From Candidatus Limnocylindrales bacterium (GTDB lineage: Bacteria; Chloroflexota; Limnocylindria; Limnocylindrales; CSP1-4), in assembly GCA_049967415.1 (NCBI GenBank), contig JBMFSS010000007.1, forward strand, positions 6,629 to 70,628: a stretch of DNA of 64,000 nucleotides, written 5' to 3'. Below the pieces are notes generated by a model. That model was not told where the DNA came from. It made no database searches and saw nothing but the letters and a program-made list of their open reading frames with translations. This document shows, piece by piece, positions 15,252 through 64,000 of this stretch. The translations under genes and the position numbers were made by a program. The stretch's first letter is position 1. Each line of letters starts with the position of its first letter.

Positions 15252-15748
15252 GGTCTCTCCTTGGGATGGTTCGGTCCGTGCGGCGCGTCGGGCAGCGCCG
15301 AGGTTGCTGCCGGGGCGGAAGCAGCCTCGGCCCTGCAGGCAGGGCACAGACCGAAGATCTCGATGCGGTGAAAATCGACGAGGTAACCGGTGCGTGCCTC
15401 GAGATCGCGCGCCACCGGGTCGAAGCCCAGGTCGCCCACCTCGACGGTACGGCCGCAGCGCTCGCAGACCAGGTGGTGGTGATGCACCGGCTTGCAGGCC
15501 ACGTACGCATGTTCGCCGCTCGGCAAGTGCAGGCTCTCGACAAGGCCCAGCGACTCGAGCAGCTCCAGGGTGCGGAAGACAGTTGCCCGGCCCACGTCCC
15601 GGCGGCTGTGTTGCGCGTCGAGGATCAGGTCGTGGGCCGAGAAGCGCCCGTCCCGGGCGGCTACCAGCTCTGCCACCGCGCGGCGCGGCGAGGTGATGTG
15701 GTACCCGGCGTGTTCGAGCGCCCGGATGAATCGGGCCGGATCGTCCAT
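15200..15748 (-). CDS. zur: Fur family transcriptional regulator (likely Zur)
   Basis: MDDPARFIRALEHAGYHITSPRRAVAELVAARDGRFSAHDLIL...HHHHLVCERCGRTVEV...FGLCPACR: Fur fold with both CxxC pairs. It heads the znu operon. The annotated 3' end overlaps znuA by about 50 nt, so one of the two boundaries is uncertain. Confidence 0.8.
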   Translation of the reverse strand: MDDPARFIRALEHAGYHITSPRRAVAELVAARDGRFSAHDLILDAQHSRRDVGRATVFRTLELLESLGLVESLHLPSGEHAYVACKPVHHHHLVCERCGRTVEVGDLGFDPVARDLEARTGYLVDFHRIEIFGLCPACRAEAASAPAATSALPDAPHGPNHPKERPCQNQQPPLLHPARPSA

Positions 15749-31131: not shown

Positions 31132-31995
31132 ATGCGCCGGGTGGCGATCATCACTGACAGCGGGTCGGATCTCGATCCTGCCGTGGCTGCCGCCGCCGGG
31201 ATCGCGCTGGTCCCGCTCCTGGCGATCTTTGGCGACCAGGAGTTCCGGGCCGGGGTGGATCTCTCGGCGCGCGAGTTCTGGGAGCGCTTCTCCGCCCCTG
31301 GGGCTCCGTTTCCGCGCACGTCCGCGGCGAGCGCCGGGACCTTCCAGGCTGCCTTCGAGGACGCGTTCCGGGACGGCGCCCGGGCAGTGGTCTGCGTGAC
31401 GCTGGCCGGCACGCTTTCGGCCACCCTCAGCAGCGCGGAGATGGCGCGGGACGCGCTCCCCAATCGCGAGATCCACATCGTCAACAGCTGGAGCGCGAGC
31501 ATGGTCGAGGGGATCCTGGCGCAGCTGGGCGCCGAGATGGCCGACCGGGGCGTCTCCGCCGCGGAGATCGCGGCCACACTCGCAGGACGGACCCGCGACC
31601 TGCAGCTGCTCTACGTGATGGACACGCTCGAGCACCTGGTGCGCGGGGGTCGCATCGGCCGGGGCCGCGCCCTGGTGGGCGCCATGCTGTCGACGAAGCC
31701 GATCATGACCATCAACGAGGGGATCGTTGACATCGTGGACCGGCCGCGAACCCGGACGCGTGCGAGGCAGCGGCTGGTCGAGCTGGTCACTGCCCGTCCG
31801 GTGGAGCGCCTGGCGGTCCTGTACACGCCCCGGACGGAGGATGTGGACGGGCTCACAGGTCAGCTGGCGGCAGCCGCGCGGATCCCGCCAGCGGCCGTCA
31901 GCCGGCAGTTCATCGGCCCGACGATCGGCCCGCATGTGGGCCCCGGCGCGTATGGCGTGGCGGTTCTCTGGCGGGCCGAGGCGCCCGCGCAGTAG
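31132..31995 (+). CDS. DegV family fatty-acid-binding protein
   Basis: MRRVAIITDSGSDL...; DegV EDD fold. Confidence 0.8.
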   Translation: MRRVAIITDSGSDLDPAVAAAAGIALVPLLAIFGDQEFRAGVDLSAREFWERFSAPGAPFPRTSAASAGTFQAAFEDAFRDGARAVVCVTLAGTLSATLSSAEMARDALPNREIHIVNSWSASMVEGILAQLGAEMADRGVSAAEIAATLAGRTRDLQLLYVMDTLEHLVRGGRIGRGRALVGAMLSTKPIMTINEGIVDIVDRPRTRTRARQRLVELVTARPVERLAVLYTPRTEDVDGLTGQLAAAARIPPAAVSRQFIGPTIGPHVGPGAYGVAVLWRAEAPAQ

Positions 31996-55991: not shown

Positions 55992-56261
55992 GTGTCAATG
56001 GGAACGGTGACGCCCGCCCTTGCTGGTCCACGCCACGCACGGATCGAAGAGGTCTCCACGGATCACCTCATCCGGCGCATCCGGTGGAACCGTGCCGTCA
56101 AGCGCGCCCGCACGCCGGGATCGCCACTTTGGCAGGCGGCCGACGCGCGAGAGCGGCGGCTGGTGGCCGCGTTGCAGGGTCGCTTTGGCGTGACCACGAT
56201 CACGCCAGACGGACTCGACTGGCTCCTCCTGGGTGAGCGTCGGGGGGACCGAATCGCCTGA
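55992..56261 (+). CDS. hypothetical small protein
   Basis: 89-aa ORF, GTG start, composition not obviously junk (…HLIRRIRWNRAVKRARTPGSPLWQAAD…ITPDGLDWLLLGERR). No family recognised. Confidence 0.3.
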   Translation: MSMGTVTPALAGPRHARIEEVSTDHLIRRIRWNRAVKRARTPGSPLWQAADARERRLVAALQGRFGVTTITPDGLDWLLLGERRGDRIA

Positions 56262-56303: not shown

Positions 56304-56699
56304 TCAGTCCAGGCGCTCGAGCCGGTCGACCAGCTCGCCCCGGGCACAGGCCAGTGCCGCGGCGTCCACGGTCTCGATCTCGGTGACCAGGGGCCGCAGC
56401 CCGAGACTGGCGAAGCGATCGTATGCGCCCTGCCCCATGCCACCGGCGATCAGCACCGAACAGTCCGCAATCGCCTGGGCCATGGCGTCATGGCGGGGTT
56501 GTGCGGCCGGGTCCGTGCCGTGACGTCCGGATGCGCTCTGCTCCTCGCGCGGCCCTTCAGTCATGTGCGGCGCAAACTTTGGCCGCAGCTCGCGGTTGAC
56601 GATCACGTTGTCCTCGACCGTCAGGACCGCGTAATACGGAGCCCGGCCGAAATGCTGGCTGACCGTGCGGCCGTCCTGGGTGGCGATAGCGATCTTCAT
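56304..56699 (-). CDS. NifX/NifB-family (dinitrogenase FeMo-cofactor-binding domain) protein
   Basis: MKIAIATQDGRTVSQHFGRAPYYAVLTVEDN...CSVLIAGGMGQGAYDRFASLGLRP: typical Nitro_FeMo-Co fold (MTH1175-like). AGGAGC ribosome-binding site upstream. Confidence 0.8.
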   Translation of the reverse strand: MKIAIATQDGRTVSQHFGRAPYYAVLTVEDNVIVNRELRPKFAPHMTEGPREEQSASGRHGTDPAAQPRHDAMAQAIADCSVLIAGGMGQGAYDRFASLGLRPLVTEIETVDAAALACARGELVDRLERLD

Positions 56700-57039
56700 G
56701 GACGCCTGTGCTCCTGGAACTGCGGCTGGGGAAATCCAAAACCCATCTATCGCAATCTATCGCACGCGCAGCAATGGTCGCGCAGGGCCAAGCGTCCCGT
56801 TTCCGGGGGGCCGCCGGCCGCTTGTCAGGACGGCGCGCGGATTCCATCGCAGACACCGTGGATGAGGTAGCCTGTCACCGAAACGATAGGCGCGATGAAG
56901 CTCGCGCGGCATCCCGCCCGGCGGGTGATGGCTTCTGGTCGGTGGGCCGGAAGCCATTGCTGTTTTTCCGGGCCTTCCATGGCCCCCTGCGGGTGGACCT
57001 GAAACCAGCGGTGCCGGGCGCGTTCGAGGCGACAGGAAG

Positions 57040-58473
57040 ATGGGTCGACAGGGAATCGGACCAACCGCGATCCCGGCGGACGCATGGCCGTCGGGCGCGC
57101 CGCAGGCGACGGGGAGCGCGCCGGCGCTGCGCAGGCCCAAGACGCAGGTGCCCGCGGGGGTGCCGCAACGGTCCGATGTGGCGTGCGAGGTCTGCAGGTT
57201 CCAGGCCGACTCGGTCGAGCGGCGCATCGGCTGGGTGGAGGCCGAAGGGGTCAACGACGGCCCCTTCCTGCGCCGGTTCGTGGCCGCCGGCGGGTACTGC
57301 CCGCGGCACATGCGCCGGGTCCTGGCCGGGGTGGAGCGCCAGCGCTGGACCATTCCGATCCGCCTGGCGCTCCACGAGGTGGGCCGGCAGGTGGCGGGAA
57401 CGGGCGCCGGCCTGCAGCTCGAGCCGTGTTCGCTCTGCGAGCTGGAGCGCTGGACGGGCGCGTACGGGGTCTCGATCCTCGTCTCGGGTCATCCGCCGGT
57501 CCTTGGAGGTGCGCGCTGGCTTGGCCCCGAGGCGTTCGTCTGCCTCCGGCACGCCGCCGAGGTCGTCCAGGCGGGAGCAGGGGTGGATGCGCTGCAGCGC
57601 CTGGAGCGTGCCATGGAGGTCGCGTCGCAGGCGGATCTGCGGGGCGCGCTGTGTGCCCTGGCCGGGTCCGATCCCGCGGCCCGGGTGCGGTCGCCGTCAG
57701 GGCAGGTGTCCCCCGAGGGTCCGGGCCGGGCGACCGGGAGTCGGCCGCCCGCCATCCCGTGCCCTGGGTCCGGCGAGGTGTCCCCGGACTGGCTGCGGGG
57801 GGAGATCGAGGCGGGCCGCTGCCCGGCCTGCTCGGCGGCGGCATGCGCCGAGCACGCCCTCTTCGAGCGTGACGAGCCACGTGCGAACGCCGTGTTGTGC
57901 CCGGCCCACGCCTGGGACGCGGTGGATGCCGCCCCGGATCTCCTGCGGGCCGGGCTGGAGGGCACGCTTTCGGATGCCCGCGGCTGGCTGTCGGCGCAGG
58001 CAGTTGCCGCCGGCTCCGGGCATGCCCGGGGCGCTTCCGGCTGGCCCGGCGACCGAGGCACGTCCCGGGGCACCGGCATTCTCCAACGGCTTGCCGGCCG
58101 TCGGGCTGCCCCCCGGCCAGGTGGGTCCTGTTCCGTCTGCGTGGCCCAGGAGGCGGCCGTGGGCGCGGTCCTGCGCCTGCTCGCGGCTCGCCCGGAGACA
58201 TCCGTCCTGCCGCCGGGCTGGCCGGGTCTCTGCGCCCGGCACCTGGCGCGAGCCGGACGCGAGGTGCCGGGCGCTCGCAGCTGGCTGGCGGCGCTGGCGC
58301 GGTCCGCCAGCGCCCGCCTTGAGCAGAGCCTGGAGCCGGGACCCATGCCGGGCGACGAGGGGGAGCGGATCCTGTGGGAGGCGGCCGCCTACCTCGCCGG
58401 GGATGGGATTGGACGCGATCCCTGGCGCGCTCCTGATCCGGGCGTGGCCGGCAACACGATCTGGCTGCTCTGA
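57040..58473 (+). CDS. cysteine-rich repeat protein A of unknown family (four CxxC...C-x-x-H modules)
   Basis: AGGAAG ribosome-binding site then ATG. Modules: CEVCRF...(32 residues)...CPRH; CSLCEL...(33 residues)...CLRH; CPACSAAAC...(21 residues)...CPAH; CSVCVA...(28 residues)...CARH. Each is followed by a hydrophobic L/F-x-R-x-x-A segment. No signal peptide or TM helix. Confidence 0.6.
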   Translation: MGRQGIGPTAIPADAWPSGAPQATGSAPALRRPKTQVPAGVPQRSDVACEVCRFQADSVERRIGWVEAEGVNDGPFLRRFVAAGGYCPRHMRRVLAGVERQRWTIPIRLALHEVGRQVAGTGAGLQLEPCSLCELERWTGAYGVSILVSGHPPVLGGARWLGPEAFVCLRHAAEVVQAGAGVDALQRLERAMEVASQADLRGALCALAGSDPAARVRSPSGQVSPEGPGRATGSRPPAIPCPGSGEVSPDWLRGEIEAGRCPACSAAACAEHALFERDEPRANAVLCPAHAWDAVDAAPDLLRAGLEGTLSDARGWLSAQAVAAGSGHARGASGWPGDRGTSRGTGILQRLAGRRAAPRPGGSCSVCVAQEAAVGAVLRLLAARPETSVLPPGWPGLCARHLARAGREVPGARSWLAALARSASARLEQSLEPGPMPGDEGERILWEAAAYLAGDGIGRDPWRAPDPGVAGNTIWLL

Positions 58474-59204
58474 TGGAGCGCGCCATGGCACTGCCATCGG
58501 TCCCCGTGCCGGCGGCCCTCCGGAGGGAAGCGCGCCACCCACTCGGGGGTCTGGAAATCCAGTACTTCTGCTGGTTCGGGGCCGGGGAGATTGACAAGCC
58601 CGAAACCCGGGTGCAGCTCGCAGAGGCCTGGGGCATGTGCCACCGGCACGCTCTCGGGTTCCTGGCGGTGGAGGCGGCGGTGAACCGCGGCTGGCTCTTT
58701 CGGCCGGCGGTGGTCTACGACGATGTGCTCGATCGGGCGCGGAGCGCACTGGGGCGGCACCGGATCTTCGGCCGGCAGCGGATGATCGCGGACCTGCGGG
58801 CGGCGGAGCCCTGTGCACCGTGCGCTCTCGGTCTCTCGCCCGCGGATCCGGCCGCCCCAGCTGCAGCGGCCATCGTGGACGAAGGCGGGAACCTGGAGCC
58901 GTTGCGGGCGTTCGCTGCCGCCACGCGCGACCACTGGGGGCGATGGATCTGCGGGCGCTGCGCTGGCACCGCATCGCCGGCTCGCTGTCGACTGCATCTG
59001 GCGGACGACCTGGCTGCCGGCCGCCTGGTGGACCTCCGCGGGCAGCGCCAGCTGGTCGAGACGGTCTCGTCGCACCTCGCCACCTACGCCCGCTCCTTCG
59101 GCTGGTTGGGACGCGGGACCGATGTGCCGGCCGACCGCGCGGCGCTGATCGGCGCTGTCGGCTGGTGCGGGGGGTGGGAAAGCATCCTGCGGTATCTCGG
59201 CTGA
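58473..59204 (+). CDS. cysteine-rich repeat protein B of unknown family (paralogous half-size version of A)
   Basis: TGATG start-stop overlap with A. Modules C...CHRH and CAPC...(39 residues)...CGRC...(9 residues)...CRLH. Same spacing logic as A. Confidence 0.6.
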   Translation: MERAMALPSVPVPAALRREARHPLGGLEIQYFCWFGAGEIDKPETRVQLAEAWGMCHRHALGFLAVEAAVNRGWLFRPAVVYDDVLDRARSALGRHRIFGRQRMIADLRAAEPCAPCALGLSPADPAAPAAAAIVDEGGNLEPLRAFAAATRDHWGRWICGRCAGTASPARCRLHLADDLAAGRLVDLRGQRQLVETVSSHLATYARSFGWLGRGTDVPADRAALIGAVGWCGGWESILRYLG

Positions 59205-59211
59205 GACCGCG

Positions 59212-60627
59212 TCAGCCGGTCCCGCTCAGCCCCACCGCTGCTCCCACGCGGCGCGTCTGGCTCGAGAGCGCCTCGTCCGGCCGGGCGCCGGTCGAAGCCC
59301 GGTCGGCCCAGGCATGCCGCAGGACCCGAAGGACCGCCGTGGCGTTGGCCGAGACGGTTGCCGGGTAAGTGAACGTGACCGATCGCGCGGCCGCCGCGGC
59401 GGCCGGCTGGCTCAGCTCAACCCGGCCGATCAGGGGCGAGAGCGTGATCGAGATCGCCCGCAGGAAGCCCAGATCGAGGGTGCGGCATTCGCCGGCCACC
59501 AGGATGGCGAACCGCGTCGCAGTCAGGCCGACCGCGGCCGCCTGGGGTGTTCCATCTCTCCGCGGTGCGTAGAACGCCGCCAGCAGCGGCTCCGGGTCCA
59601 GATGCTCGCGCAGCGCAGCGACCGCCTGCAGGGCGTCGTCCTGCTGGTGGAAGAGGGCCGCAGGAGCGGGGTCGAAGTCGAGCGCCCGGGGAGCATAGCG
59701 GCGCACCATGGCCCGGCTCCCCTCCGCGGGAAGGAACCGCGCGAGCAGGTCGCGCATCACCTCCGCCTCGGGTCGAAGCTCCTCCGGCAGCGGGAAGGTG
59801 GCGCCACCTCCCCGGGTCTGGACCTGCAGCTCCACCACGTCGCCTCCCGACAGGCGGACGGCCTGCAGTGCCTCAACGGCCACCAGCCGCGCGTCGACAC
59901 CCCAATCCATCAGGTAGCGGTCGGGGGCCATGTGGTCCACCATCCAGATCAGCTGCCGGTCGGAGAGAACCAGCAGGCCGGCGCGCCGCTCCGCTCCCCG
60001 TCGTGACAGCCCCAGCAACCCGCCGCGGATCGCGTCCGGCGGCCGTTCGATGGCGTACAGCAGCCGCTCGTCGTCATCCAGGAGCCCCTCCAGCCCACGG
60101 ATGAAGCGAGGAGGCAGCCGATCCAGGCGATACTCGGGACGGGAATGCGGGGTGGTGAACCGCGCCTGGCCGGGATCGGCTGCCGCCGAGCGCCAGGCGC
60201 GGCCGCCCAGCAGCCTCCCGGCCTGGCGGCGCACCCGGAATCGCTGGCGCGCTTCCAGCGCCAGCCGGTCGGCGCCAGCCGCATCGACCCATCGCGCTTC
60301 CGGGGCGCGTGCCACCGTCCGGATCACCGACTCGGGTGGAAGGGGCTGGCCGGGCAGGTTCGCGACCAGCACGGTTCGATCGGGCGCCATGAGGGCCCCC
60401 GCCAGTTCGGCCGTCACGCGACAGCCCGCGAAACTGGATGCGGGAAGCGCGATCACTGCCGGCAGCGCGCTGCCGTCGCCCGCGTCCGAGTCGGCAAGGT
60501 GGGCGCGGTCGAGCCCCAGCCAGAGCCCGCCTTCGCGGCCGGCCGTGGCGCGCGCCAGGCCGTCCTCGACGCTCACCTCGAGGCCGGGTCCGAGGGCTTC
60601 ATCGACCACCAGGTCCACGCGGTTCAT
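59212..60627 (-). CDS. hypothetical protein (472 aa)
   Basis: Start at the ATG for MNRVDLVVDEALGPGLE, ATGA-coupled to the upstream HEAT protein gene. No recognisable motifs. Confidence 0.5.
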   Translation of the reverse strand: MNRVDLVVDEALGPGLEVSVEDGLARATAGREGGLWLGLDRAHLADSDAGDGSALPAVIALPASSFAGCRVTAELAGALMAPDRTVLVANLPGQPLPPESVIRTVARAPEARWVDAAGADRLALEARQRFRVRRQAGRLLGGRAWRSAAADPGQARFTTPHSRPEYRLDRLPPRFIRGLEGLLDDDERLLYAIERPPDAIRGGLLGLSRRGAERRAGLLVLSDRQLIWMVDHMAPDRYLMDWGVDARLVAVEALQAVRLSGGDVVELQVQTRGGGATFPLPEELRPEAEVMRDLLARFLPAEGSRAMVRRYAPRALDFDPAPAALFHQQDDALQAVAALREHLDPEPLLAAFYAPRRDGTPQAAAVGLTATRFAILVAGECRTLDLGFLRAISITLSPLIGRVELSQPAAAAAARSVTFTYPATVSANATAVLRVLRHAWADRASTGARPDEALSSQTRRVGAAVGLSGTG

Positions 60628-61088
60628 CTTCGTTCCGCCGCGACACGGGGCAAGCCTCCGGGACCGGCCGCCGCGCGCCGGACGATCACCGAAGGATGGG
60701 CTCGTGCGGCTGCCAGGTAGCCGTCCGCGACCGGATCGCCGATAAAGGCACGCAGGGCCCGTGCCGCCGCCGCCGCCCGATACGGGTCGCCCTGCCTTGC
60801 CAGCAGCCTGCCCAGCGGCTCGATGGCCCGCACCTCCTGCCGCCGGGCCAGCAGCATTGCAGCGAGGATGGCGGTGGCCGTGTCGGGGTGATCGAGCGCC
60901 CACAGCAGGCCGGCCTCAAAGTCGCGTGGCGCGTCCAGGGTGGCCCCGCACCGGGCGCAGGTTGTGCGCTCCCAGGCGTTCAGGGCGTAACAGGAAGGAC
61001 AGACCCGGGTCGGTCGTTCCCCGCGACCGGTCAAAGCCGGCCGGGGAACACCCGGAGGCCCGAGGAGATCCGAAGGCGAACCGGGCAT
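60624..61088 (-). CDS. zinc-ribbon plus HEAT-repeat (PBS-lyase-like) protein
   Basis: CPSCYALNAWERTTCARCG zinc ribbon followed by two or three HEAT-like repeats (ILAAMLLARRQEVRAIEPLGRLL..., DPYRAAAAARALRAFIGDP...). Confidence 0.5.
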   Translation of the reverse strand: MPGSPSDLLGPPGVPRPALTGRGERPTRVCPSCYALNAWERTTCARCGATLDAPRDFEAGLLWALDHPDTATAILAAMLLARRQEVRAIEPLGRLLARQGDPYRAAAAARALRAFIGDPVADGYLAAARAHPSVIVRRAAAGPGGLPRVAAERR

Positions 61089-61366
61089 CTTCCACCTCTC
61101 GAACAGTTCGAACAAGGTAGAAGCCGTCAGCGGATCCGCAGGTCGTCGCGCTCGCGACGGGCGGGCCTCATCACCCGGACTCATTTTAGCGCGATGGCCC
61201 GGGCCGCCCCGGCGGAGCCAGGGCCTGGGCGGGCAACCCGGGCCGTCTGGCCGATGACAGATCGCACGGGACGCGTACCCTTGAGGCCAATGTGCCGCCG
61301 CGTCGCCGCAAGGGCCCTGGGCCCCGGACTGGCGCGCGACCTCCGGCTGGCTGTGGAGGTTCTTGA

Positions 61367-62671
<1,305 letters not shown>

Positions 62672-62765
62672 TTCGCGGGTAACGGCCACGTCGGCGAGCG
62701 TGGCGAGCGTCGTCGGGTCGAGCCGTCTGCCCGGTTGGCCTGGCCGACAATCTGCGCCGTCTGCT

Positions 62766-62800
62766 GACAGCCTCTGCACCGTTCGGGTGCGGAGGCTGTC
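62766..62800 (+). terminator. stem-loop (15-bp stem, one G-U) about 95 nt downstream of eno
   Basis: GACAGCCTCTGCACC-gttcg-GGTGCGGAGGCTGTC followed by a T-containing tract (atggtttc). Confidence 0.45.
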
Positions 62801-62950
62801 ATGGTTTCGGAGGGTGGCAAGCGAGCGATATGCGCGCCGAGGGGCGGAGCGGCGCGCAGCGCCCCGCGGGAAGGGGCGCGGCGCGCTGTGGCCCGCGCAT
62901 CATGGCCCCGTCGACTAACAGGGCAGGAGGGACGCGTGGCTGGCAACGGG

Positions 62951-63433
62951 ATGGAGATCGAGCGCAAGTGGCTGCTGGCCGCGGCGCCAACGGCGGCGGA
63001 GCTGCAGCGGCTCGGTGACCGGCCGATCAGGATCGAGCAGGTCTATCTGCGGCCCCTGCCGGCCGCGCCCGTGCGTCGCGTGCGCCGGAGCGAGCAGGCG
63101 GGGCGGATCGACCACACATACACGGAGAAGGCACCGCTCGGGGGGATCGTGCGCTCGGAACGCGAGCACCCGATCGATGCGGCCGAGTACGCGCGGCTGC
63201 TCGGCGAAGCGGACCCGGCGCTGCACCCCATCCGCAAGACCCGCCACGTCTTCCCCTACGCGGGCAACACCCTGGAGCTGGACGTCTTCGATGAGCCCGC
63301 CGGGCTCGTGATCCTGGAGATCGAGTTCGACCGAGCCGACGCACCGGAACCAGCGCTGCCACCTGCGCTGCGGGTGGTCCGCGAGGTGAGCGAAGTCCCG
63401 GCGTACTTCAACGTCAACCTGGCTCGGGGGTAA
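62951..63433 (+). CDS. CYTH-domain protein (class IV adenylyl cyclase / triphosphatase-like)
   Basis: MEIERKWLL (ExExK motif), later ...ELDVFDEPAGLVILEIEFD acidic motifs. Confidence 0.75.
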   Translation: MEIERKWLLAAAPTAAELQRLGDRPIRIEQVYLRPLPAAPVRRVRRSEQAGRIDHTYTEKAPLGGIVRSEREHPIDAAEYARLLGEADPALHPIRKTRHVFPYAGNTLELDVFDEPAGLVILEIEFDRADAPEPALPPALRVVREVSEVPAYFNVNLARG

Positions 63434-64000
63434 TGGCCCGGCCGAAGATCCGGCGGTAGACGTCCTCGCCGTAGCTGGTCGTCAGCGGCTCACCCGGGAC
63501 CACCCGGAAGGTGCGCTCCCCGTCGGACCGACGTTCGGCGCGCAGGAAGAGGGCGCGCTCCGGGAGCAGCCGCTGGAAGCTGTCGGCCAGATCGAACATG
63601 TGTGTTACGTACAGGACCTTGACGCCGCTGTCGAGCAGCGCACGCACGACCTGGCGGGCGATCTCGGACCCCTCGCGCTCGCTGGTCGAGGCAAACGACT
63701 CGTTGAAGAACACCACGCCCTGTGGCGTGAGGCTGTCCACGATGGCGCTCATCCGCCGCAGCTCTTCGTCCAGCTTGCCGCTCCGCATGCTGGCGTCCTC
63801 TTCGCGCTTGAAGTGCGTGAAGATGCCGCTGCAGGCGTTGGCCCGAAAGGCCTCGGCGCCCACGAACATCCCATCCTGCAGCCCCGCTGGCTGGCGTAGC
63901 CGCGCGGCGCCCGCGCCGGATGCGCATCCTTGGCGGCCGCGGGCTGGGCCGGCGGACCGGGCTGCGCCACCCTGCCGCGCAGGGTGGCTACACTCGCCCT
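63414..64000 (-). CDS. MutS-family ATPase domain protein (C-terminal part; 5' end runs off the window)
   Basis: ...KLDEELRRMSAIVDSLTPQGVVFFNESFASTSEREGSEIARQVVRALLDSGVKVLYVTHMFDL resembles MutS domain V (ABC signature, Walker B and the D-loop/ThHyxEL segment). The frame stays open upstream of the first ATG to the window end. Confidence 0.45.
   Translation of the reverse strand, partial: GECSHPARQGGAARSAGPARGRQGCASGAGAARLRQPAGLQDGMFVGAEAFRANACSGIFTHFKREEDASMRSGKLDEELRRMSAIVDSLTPQGVVFFNESFASTSEREGSEIARQVVRALLDSGVKVLYVTHMFDLADSFQRLLPERALFLRAERRSDGERTFRVVPGEPLTTSYGEDVYRRIFGRAITPEPG

Follow-up and report, generated by a model that had tools for sequence, protein, structure and literature searches.

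Four genes near the end of a 64-kb stretch of Candidatus Limnocylindrales DNA (hereafter the window; GC content 72%, all coordinates being positions in it) probably form two convergent operons, each under a fluoride riboswitch of its own, and their proteins would belong to a Chloroflexota fluoride regulon that includes new families. Operon 1 consists of gene A (57040-58473, plus strand), whose 477 amino acids (aa) contain four CxxC...CxxH (Cys3His) modules, and gene B (58473-59204, plus strand), encoding a 243-aa protein predicted to be all-alpha and carrying nine invariant Cys/His residues; the two overlap by 1 nucleotide (nt), in TGATG. Operon 2 faces them and comprises a 154-aa zinc-ribbon/HEAT-repeat gene (60624-61088, minus strand) and a 471-aa gene (59212-60627, minus strand) with a predicted pyrophosphatase-like fold and two predicted PH-like domains, overlapping through ATGA and so translationally coupled. 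A preliminary description of this DNA had listed these four genes, a divergent NifX-like gene, the ATGA overlap and an inverted repeat at the facing stop codons, all of which are present in the sequence. Its two-gene, ATGA-coupled convergent operon is retained, except that the 472 aa given for the second protein included the stop codon. The description had also linked the Cys-rich pair, genes A and B, to the convergent operon. Recurrent adjacency in several arrangements bears this out, and the functional link holds because each operon starts with a variant of one riboswitch class.

The leader of operon 2 was recognized in an Rfam scan of the locus, which returned one notable sub-threshold match, to the fluoride riboswitch RF01734 (crcB motif) at 61111-61184 on the minus strand (24.5 bits, E 1e-4), 23 nt before the ATG of the HEAT gene. 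In each of the eight relatives scanned, RF01734 is likewise the only Rfam match, and it always stands immediately before the HEAT gene (23.5-29.9 bits). The sub-threshold score in the window coincides with a 13-nt inserted hairpin, and HEAT leaders carry an extra hairpin between helices P1 and P3. Across nine aligned HEAT leaders, pairing reaches 99.4% over the 18 pairs that make up P1, the extra hairpin, P3 and the pseudoknot, and compensatory changes and two double changes are present. The window leader keeps the GAUG and UGA(U/C)GG motifs, with a single U>C change in the second, and scores 89.9 bits against R1, the covariance model built from these nine sequences. In its minimum free energy (MFE) fold, the 3′ strand of the aptamer, CUUCUACCUU, pairs with the Shine-Dalgarno region, GAGGUGGAAG (61089-61123, minus strand), and the modelled helix is the putative translational expression platform. 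A second Rfam match at the locus, CRISPR-DR29, was set aside as chance level.

A TAAAAT box resembling a -10 element lies upstream of this aptamer at 61183-61190 (minus strand), so that the leader with its box spans 61111-61190. Most riboswitch elements have a conserved box of the same kind, TA(G/C/A)AAT, 8-10 nt before them (in the first columns of alignment A8), which suggests that riboswitch transcripts may start right at the aptamer.

Operon 1 is preceded by a more divergent fluoride-riboswitch-like aptamer, termed type III, at 56882-56944 (plus strand). Its core consists of GCGCGAUGAAGCUCGCGC, the P3 hairpin and then UGAUGGCUUCU, and P1, P3 and strands capable of forming the pseudoknot are all present. 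The element scores 15.8 bits against RF01734 (E 0.04 in 251 nt) and 22.3 bits against R1 (E 0.003 over 1.2 Mb), and it lies within roughly 110 nt of non-coding sequence with about 90% conservation in two related loci, L001 and L002, while the flanks diverge. A terminator scan placed an intrinsic terminator with a 17-bp stem and a U-run at 56924-56969 (plus strand), overlapping the aptamer (MFE -58.6 kcal/mol, z -4.13). The 3′ pseudoknot strand of the aptamer doubles as the 5′ arm of this terminator, giving the layout of an ON switch. The window element is one of 24 type III elements in which the core is identical while the P3 and terminator sequences vary; in all of them a terminator overlaps the aptamer and leads into a U-run. 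In L013-L016, which lack gene A, an orthologue of the window element stands before gene B; gene A was therefore inserted between an ancestral riboswitch and gene B.

The window elements share with RF01734 the helices P1 and P3, the pseudoknot, the GAUG and UGAUGG motifs and a position in the 5′ untranslated region. Both of their platforms, the overlapping terminator and the masked Shine-Dalgarno sequence, agree with the known ON-switch logic of the class (PMC2864571). They depart from the family in scoring below its threshold and fall into two subtypes, one with the extra covarying hairpin between P1 and P3, the other with a GCGCG P1 and a CUUCUGG tail in place of the consensus CUCCUAC, the linker of the gene A leader differing as well. 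Fluoride is the most plausible ligand of both divergent window aptamers. In the absence of fluoride, the 3′ strand of each aptamer would find its pairing partner further downstream. In operon 1 this would be the arm of the terminator; in operon 2 it would be the Shine-Dalgarno sequence, the ribosome-binding site ahead of the HEAT and 471-aa genes being masked. With fluoride and Mg2+ bound, the strand would be kept in the aptamer pseudoknot and the genes would be expressed.

Both leaders belong to a large set of related RNAs. A search of the window and 71 further loci with R1 yielded 94 elements, all but two of which contain a GGCGAUG...UGAUGG core, and the only GAUG-type cores in the 64-kb window are those of the HEAT and gene A leaders. 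R1 matches at 31884-31956 of the window (minus strand, E 0.067) and at 1981-2054 of L068 lack the GAUG core and were judged spurious. In the alignment of the 94 elements, pairing holds in 97.5% of the cells, double changes occur at 10 of 12 pairs and none of 500 shuffles reaches the observed covariation; alignment A8 was fitted to the model, so such pair counts lean towards the structure. Directly downstream of the elements lie pairs of MutS_V genes (21 cases), HEAT genes (13), Cys-rich genes of the DUF6062 type (12), NUDIX genes, which lead into MoxR (8), enolase (8), the 471-aa gene (8), MoxR (3) and an MFS gene (1). The remaining 20 are unassigned, a class that includes elements before CrcB, a Na+/H+ exchanger (Na_H_Exchanger), DUF190 with CBS, and a dynamin-like GTPase.

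Several of the same gene families stand behind elements that RF01734 itself recognizes at its gathering score. These precede a 471-aa homologue directly in L018 (37.4 bits), the series NUDIX, MoxR, DUF58, DUF4129 and 471-aa gene in L045 (40.4 bits), a MutS-like pair in L005 (49.4 bits) and CrcB in L058 (46.7 bits). Pyrophosphatase, enolase and HAD genes are frequent cargo of fluoride riboswitches (PMC11139923); mutS genes are also typical, and overlapping terminators act as ON switches (PMC11139923, PMC2864571). The cargo of the fluoride riboswitch ‘super-regulon’, namely crcB, Na+/H+ antiporter, enolase, mutS-like and HAD genes, is also found in the related loci. What differs from the known regulon is the additional cargo described here: DUF6062-like, zinc-ribbon/HEAT and pyrophosphatase-like/PH genes and the MoxR-DUF58-DUF4129 module.

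Other cargo deserves brief mention. The MutS_V-domain gene pairs, of about 500 aa each, are the commonest (for example at L005 5555-5614) and fit the old ‘mutS’ association of the crcB motif. At L045 15544-15627 (minus strand) an element precedes a dynamin-family GTPase (PF00350), unusual for this riboswitch class, and in L033 and L016 the cargo is a protein of 180-190 aa with no assigned role. L005 (7350-7811), L007, L032, L039, L057 and L058 all have a 153-aa HAD-like protein, sometimes between gene B and the 471-aa gene.

The association of the genes with one another was followed, with the 471-aa gene as anchor, in 58 species-representative loci. All of them derive from Chloroflexota-type metagenome-assembled genomes, and their open reading frames (ORFs) were searched with iterated hidden Markov models (HMMs). 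A gene of the DUF6062 superfamily, to which genes A and B are assigned below, lies within 10 kb of the 471-aa gene in 21 of these loci and a zinc-ribbon/HEAT gene in about 18. Gene B is convergent with the 471-aa gene, as in the window, in L003, L013-L017 and L024. A four-module gene resembling A stands directly upstream of the 471-aa gene and in the same direction in eight loci, and L002 has the order HEAT, DUF6062, 471-aa gene. MoxR, DUF58 and DUF4129 genes are found directly upstream of the 471-aa gene on the same strand in 17 of the 58. There the 471-aa gene ends a tight unit that runs from a DUF6062-like gene through NUDIX or MFS, MoxR, DUF58, DUF4129 and, in some cases, an A-like gene. 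In such genomes the regulon would form a single unit (DUF6062-like, NUDIX, MoxR AAA+, DUF58, DUF4129, optional A-like and 471-aa genes) adjoining riboswitch-controlled enolase, MutS-like pairs, CrcB and Na+/H+ antiporters.

An independent test drew on unrelated metagenomes (GC 45-71%), in which a scan with a 4-sequence alignment yielded 48 loci with canonical DUF6062 genes. In about 26 of the 48, a riboswitch on the same strand heads the operon that contains the DUF6062 gene. Rfam at gathering score, applied to 20 of the 48, returned 14 fluoride riboswitches and nothing else; four of these immediately precede the DUF6062 gene. In at least 12 of the 48, DUF6062 has a HEAT homologue as a neighbour, sometimes in the order riboswitch, HEAT, DUF6062. 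Homologues of the Cys-rich genes therefore do co-localize with HEAT genes, as the preliminary description had proposed, whereas the co-localization with NifX-like genes that it also proposed is confined to L001 and L073. Other neighbours in this set are Na+/H+ antiporters, DUF190-CBS, CrcB, enolase, MutS_V pairs and NUDIX genes, together with one 471-aa homologue and one DUF58 gene, and tandem DUF6062 pairs are common. A further case comes from the megaplasmid of Thermomicrobium roseum DSM 5159 (L071, NC_011961.1 661065-666235), where a riboswitch-like leader (Rfam 29 bits) is followed by a three-module DUF6062 gene (WP_012642625), a HEAT gene (WP_012642737), MoxR, DUF58 and DUF4129, the five genes being TRD_RS12225-12245.

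Neither A nor B is recognized by existing families: Pfam, NCBIfam and PADLOC return nothing for them or for the 471-aa protein, and against PF19538 (DUF6062; gathering score 27 bits) neither matches even at E <=10. The N-terminal module of gene A matches a Pfam-DUF6062 protein of L002 by BLASTP (E 7e-8). A gene A profile searched against 1.84 billion representatives matched only 80 clusters, and all seven of the tested matches (about 240 aa) pass PF19538; the sole named database copy belongs to a Candidatus Limnocylindrales MAG of the Chloroflexota. Canonical DUF6062 proteins have two Cys3His sites. Gene A, with four invariant CxxC...CxxH modules in the Cys/His alignment, is a DUF6062 relative duplicated in tandem. 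For gene B the link is by iterated HMM only, which reaches the DUF6062 protein of L002 at 4e-26. A direct hhalign comparison of A with B is weak (E 0.096); the iterated HMMs of the two converge on the same DUF6062-like ORFs, and both are therefore placed in the DUF6062 superfamily.

With DUF6062 the two proteins share modules of the form CxxC...(V)ND...G(F/Y)CxxH, two in the family itself, and a C-terminal helical hairpin. Gene A differs from it in the number of modules, whereas gene B lacks the first CxxC and has gained a CGxC. The invariant residues of gene B are C56, H59, C114, C117, C160, C163, C172, H175 and C232. Its AlphaFold2 model is all-alpha, with a predicted local distance difference test score (pLDDT) of 87.5, and finds no fold match in the PDB (best E 0.42). 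DUF6062 is a family with no known function or solved structure, for which a literature search found no paper.

The first protein of operon 2 had been described as a zinc ribbon with HEAT repeats, an identity confirmed by a HEAT_2 score of 31.2 bits (gathering cut-off 27.7) and by a CPxC...CxxC ribbon that is kept in relatives, with the HEAT repeats after it. The 471-aa protein has over 180 homologues, and a Pfam domain is found in none of them. Its AlphaFold2 model (pLDDT 86.6, predicted template modelling score 0.82) contains the fold of family I inorganic pyrophosphatase in residues ~1-160, matched by Foldseek to PDB 4z70_B (E 1e-6; template modelling score, target-normalized, 0.53-0.56). 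Two PH-like domains follow this N-terminus, and Foldseek matches them to the tandem PH domains of Rtt106. The sequence profile against PDB sequences gives a pyrophosphatase match at E 0.028, and the threshold of Pfam PF00719 is not reached. The catalytic residues checked were, in Escherichia coli numbering, E20, K29, E31, R43, Y55, D65, D67, D70, D97, D102 and K104. What is kept of them is confined to E20 and R43 equivalents and part of an acidic cluster (D40, D/E46, D48); alignments and the conservation table show no equivalents of K29, Y55, D67, D70, D97, D102 or K104, and the D97-K104 loop is absent. The protein thus shares with the family its fold, some acidic positions and R43, and differs from it in a degenerate active site and in the fusion to two PH-like domains. 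A role as an active or a fluoride-insensitive pyrophosphatase was rejected because most catalytic residues are missing. In its setting it resembles pyrophosphatases, which are typical cargo of fluoride riboswitches.

Besides the leaning of the pair counts noted above, several observations weigh against assigning the locus to a fluoride regulon. Both window leaders score below the Rfam gathering threshold of 34 bits, and R1, which recovers them, was built from this lineage and includes a promoter-like flank. Fluoride binding by the gene A aptamer is not assured, because it has UGG for UAC and an altered linker. The 64-kb window has no gene for CrcB or another fluoride exporter, and none for MoxR, DUF58 or DUF4129; in the syntenic L001, NUDIX and MoxR appear only about 7 kb beyond the 471-aa gene. 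Around the 471-aa gene, a Cys-rich gene is found in only 21 and a HEAT gene in only about 18 of the 58 loci. Finally, the pyrophosphatase-like domain lacks most catalytic residues, and no biochemical role in fluoride stress can be derived for the Cys3His proteins.

The first of these points would also fit leaders that are RNAs derived from fluoride riboswitches, with subtypes that sense another ligand or have decayed and with proteins that serve a MoxR-chaperone pathway unrelated to fluoride. The type III tail, CUUCUGG rather than CUCCUAC, favours this explanation, as does the general experience that riboswitch classes spawn variants of changed specificity. It is nonetheless improbable, since the GAUG and UGAUGG motifs and the pseudoknot are retained and the divergent subtypes precede the same families (MutS_V, NUDIX followed by MoxR, 471-aa and DUF6062 genes) as the elements that pass the threshold.

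Considerably less probable still is that the genes are neighbours by inherited synteny in one narrow lineage and share no function. The whole region, housekeeping flanks included, is indeed syntenic in L001, and most 471-aa-anchored loci have no Cys-rich or HEAT gene within 10 kb. Against this, the associations recur in differing orders and orientations across phylogenetically distant and compositionally different contigs, and each unit has its own copy of one riboswitch class.

A comparably small probability attaches to the function that the preliminary description had proposed, in which the NifX-like protein, the Cys-rich pair and the HEAT/471-aa proteins form a single Fe-S or metal-cluster system, with NifX as carrier and the Cys-rich proteins as scaffolds. 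The 131-aa NifX/NifB-C-like protein (56304-56699, minus strand) has a true PF02579 domain (Nitro_FeMo-Co, 57 bits against a cut-off of 26.3), as do other stand-alone NifX/NafY/NifB-C-like proteins. The family assignment is therefore correct at the level of the generic domain but not at that of the NifX or NifB equivalogs: it scores 28.7 bits against TIGR02663 (NifX; cut-off 112), and the NifB equivalog cut-off is likewise far above it. It also differs from those stand-alone proteins in having no nif context and in not being conserved with its neighbours. As the description had noted, there are no nitrogenase genes nearby, none turning up over about 10 kb in L001, the relative that is annotated and syntenic (the remainder of the window was not annotated). 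Also in favour of metal-cluster handling are the conserved Cys3His sites of genes A and B and the insertion of metal cofactors by MoxR-family ATPases elsewhere, such as NorQ/NorD (PMC9976466).

The distribution of the NifX-like gene argues strongly against its being a partner of the pair or the operon. It is absent within 10 kb of the 471-aa gene from all 58 species-level loci and from 47 of the 48 DUF6062-anchored loci, so that among about 118 related loci it is found in two lineages only, L001, the closest relative of the window, and L073. It is missing from L002, L003, L013 and L014, where the other genes of the locus remain together, and in the window it sits on the opposite strand, outside the riboswitch-controlled transcript. 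Gene order in L013 and L014 runs from serS through peroxiredoxin, the 89-aa ORF and gene B to the convergent operon, without gene A or NifX, which points to both as insertions in the lineage of the window; L002 has gene A without NifX. Judged from gene order, the NifX-like gene is a recent, lineage-specific insertion outside both regulated units and probably a neighbour rather than a member of the system. Moreover, the regulator common to the units would sense fluoride, not metal, no Fe-S assembly genes are nearby, and the wider neighbourhood holds classic fluoride-regulon genes (CrcB, Na+/H+ antiporter, DUF190-CBS, enolase and MutS-like). The metal-cluster function is accordingly not supported. 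The counterexample L073, an unrelated metagenome contig, has at 1291-2990 a NifX-like gene with the same His-rich insertion, then genes of 273 and 138 aa and, after these, a riboswitch with a tandem DUF6062 pair; the NifX-like gene lies 1.5 kb upstream of the DUF6062 locus.

That the locus is an anti-phage or conflict system centred on a MoxR-type ATPase, as the occurrence of MoxR/VWA modules in such systems (PMC7159879) might suggest, is scarcely credible, given that PADLOC finds no match except one at chance level, that nuclease and effector domains are lacking and that the genes are embedded among housekeeping and fluoride-resistance genes.

If the four genes do form part of a fluoride regulon, their neighbours in other genomes hint at what the proteins might do. 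MoxR ATPases assist, as chaperones, in the maturation of protein complexes, and the bifidobacterial PFNA cluster has a core of aaa-atp, duf58 and tgm genes in the same order as the MoxR-DUF58-DUF4129 genes found beside homologues of the window genes (PMC8430577). Unlike in the PFNA cluster and in other operons of MoxR (MRP subfamily), DUF58 and transglutaminase/DUF4129, the core is missing from the window and has no kinase or FN3 partner; in the related loci it is instead fused into fluoride-riboswitch units with DUF6062-like, NUDIX and 471-aa genes.

Fluoride poisons Mg2+-dependent phosphoryl-transfer enzymes. Together with the riboswitch cargo and the chaperone role of MoxR, this leads to the speculation that the window proteins are fluoride-induced adaptors, clients or client-binding partners of the MoxR-DUF58-DUF4129 module, which might protect or restore such enzymes after poisoning by metal-fluoride complexes. 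The pyrophosphatase-derived domain would then be a binding module, not an enzyme. A more far-reaching version is offered tentatively and seems rather unlikely to hold in full. In this version, the DUF6062 Cys3His, zinc-ribbon/HEAT and pyrophosphatase-derived/PH proteins would constitute, with MoxR-DUF58-DUF4129, an unrecognized machine for the response to fluoride damage. The AAA+ protein would remodel or re-metallate enzymes trapped by Mg- or Al-fluoride, the degenerate domain would recognize the lesion or the ligand, and at least two sub-threshold riboswitch subtypes would extend the regulon in Chloroflexota and beyond.

Neither the riboswitch class nor the concept of a fluoride regulon is new. 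The two variant subtypes, and the membership of DUF6062, HEAT, 471-aa and MoxR-DUF58-DUF4129 genes in the regulon, were not found in the searchable literature, a scope that leaves out the supplementary gene lists of Baker et al. (2012). Fluoride resistance is seen mainly as export (CrcB/Fluc, CLC-F) and over-production of inhibited enzymes, and further cellular responses to fluoride matter for the degradation and biosynthesis of organofluorines (PMC11139923). By tying DUF6062, a small HEAT protein, a pseudo-pyrophosphatase and a MoxR AAA+ module to a fluoride switch, the locus attaches a testable phenotype to each, and Thermomicrobium roseum is a cultured carrier ready for use as an experimental model. 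The two riboswitch subtypes escape standard annotation.

The remaining features of the region are of less consequence. The stop codons of gene B and the 471-aa gene lie within a 7-bp inverted repeat, CGGCTGA-N7-TCAGCCG (59198-59218, assigned to no strand), which the preliminary description had taken as a mark of co-evolving genes. The hairpin is present and is no more than chance, so the inference drawn from it falls. The repeat arises because both genes end in GGC-TGA, the same 121 nt hold four inverted repeats of at least 6 nt, and the folding z-scores against shuffled sequence are -1.97 and -0.94. Nor is the spacing between the two genes conserved, being 7 nt in L001 and about 68-85 nt in L002 and L003. 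A bidirectional terminator was likewise considered here and rejected, given the weak z-scores, the lack of a T-run in the terminator scan, the lack of conservation and the origin of the repeat as a by-product of the gene ends.

Upstream of the NifX-like gene, on the plus strand, lie lysS, serS, a peroxiredoxin gene and a conserved 89-aa ORF. This ORF (55992-56261), located 3′ of the peroxiredoxin gene, is kept in L001, L002, L013 and L014 and has no family match. Beyond operon 2, enolase (61367-62671, plus strand) is followed by CYTH on the same strand and then by the start of a MutS_V gene (63414-64000, minus strand), whose leader is not visible because the gene runs off the end of the window. 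In L001, a riboswitch element (15648-15728, plus strand) and two small ORFs of 62 and 72 aa occupy a gap of about 870 nt between enolase and CYTH. The corresponding gap in the window (62672-62950) is only about 280 nt long and contains no riboswitch element. The small regulated unit present there in L001 appears, from this comparison, to have been lost from the window.

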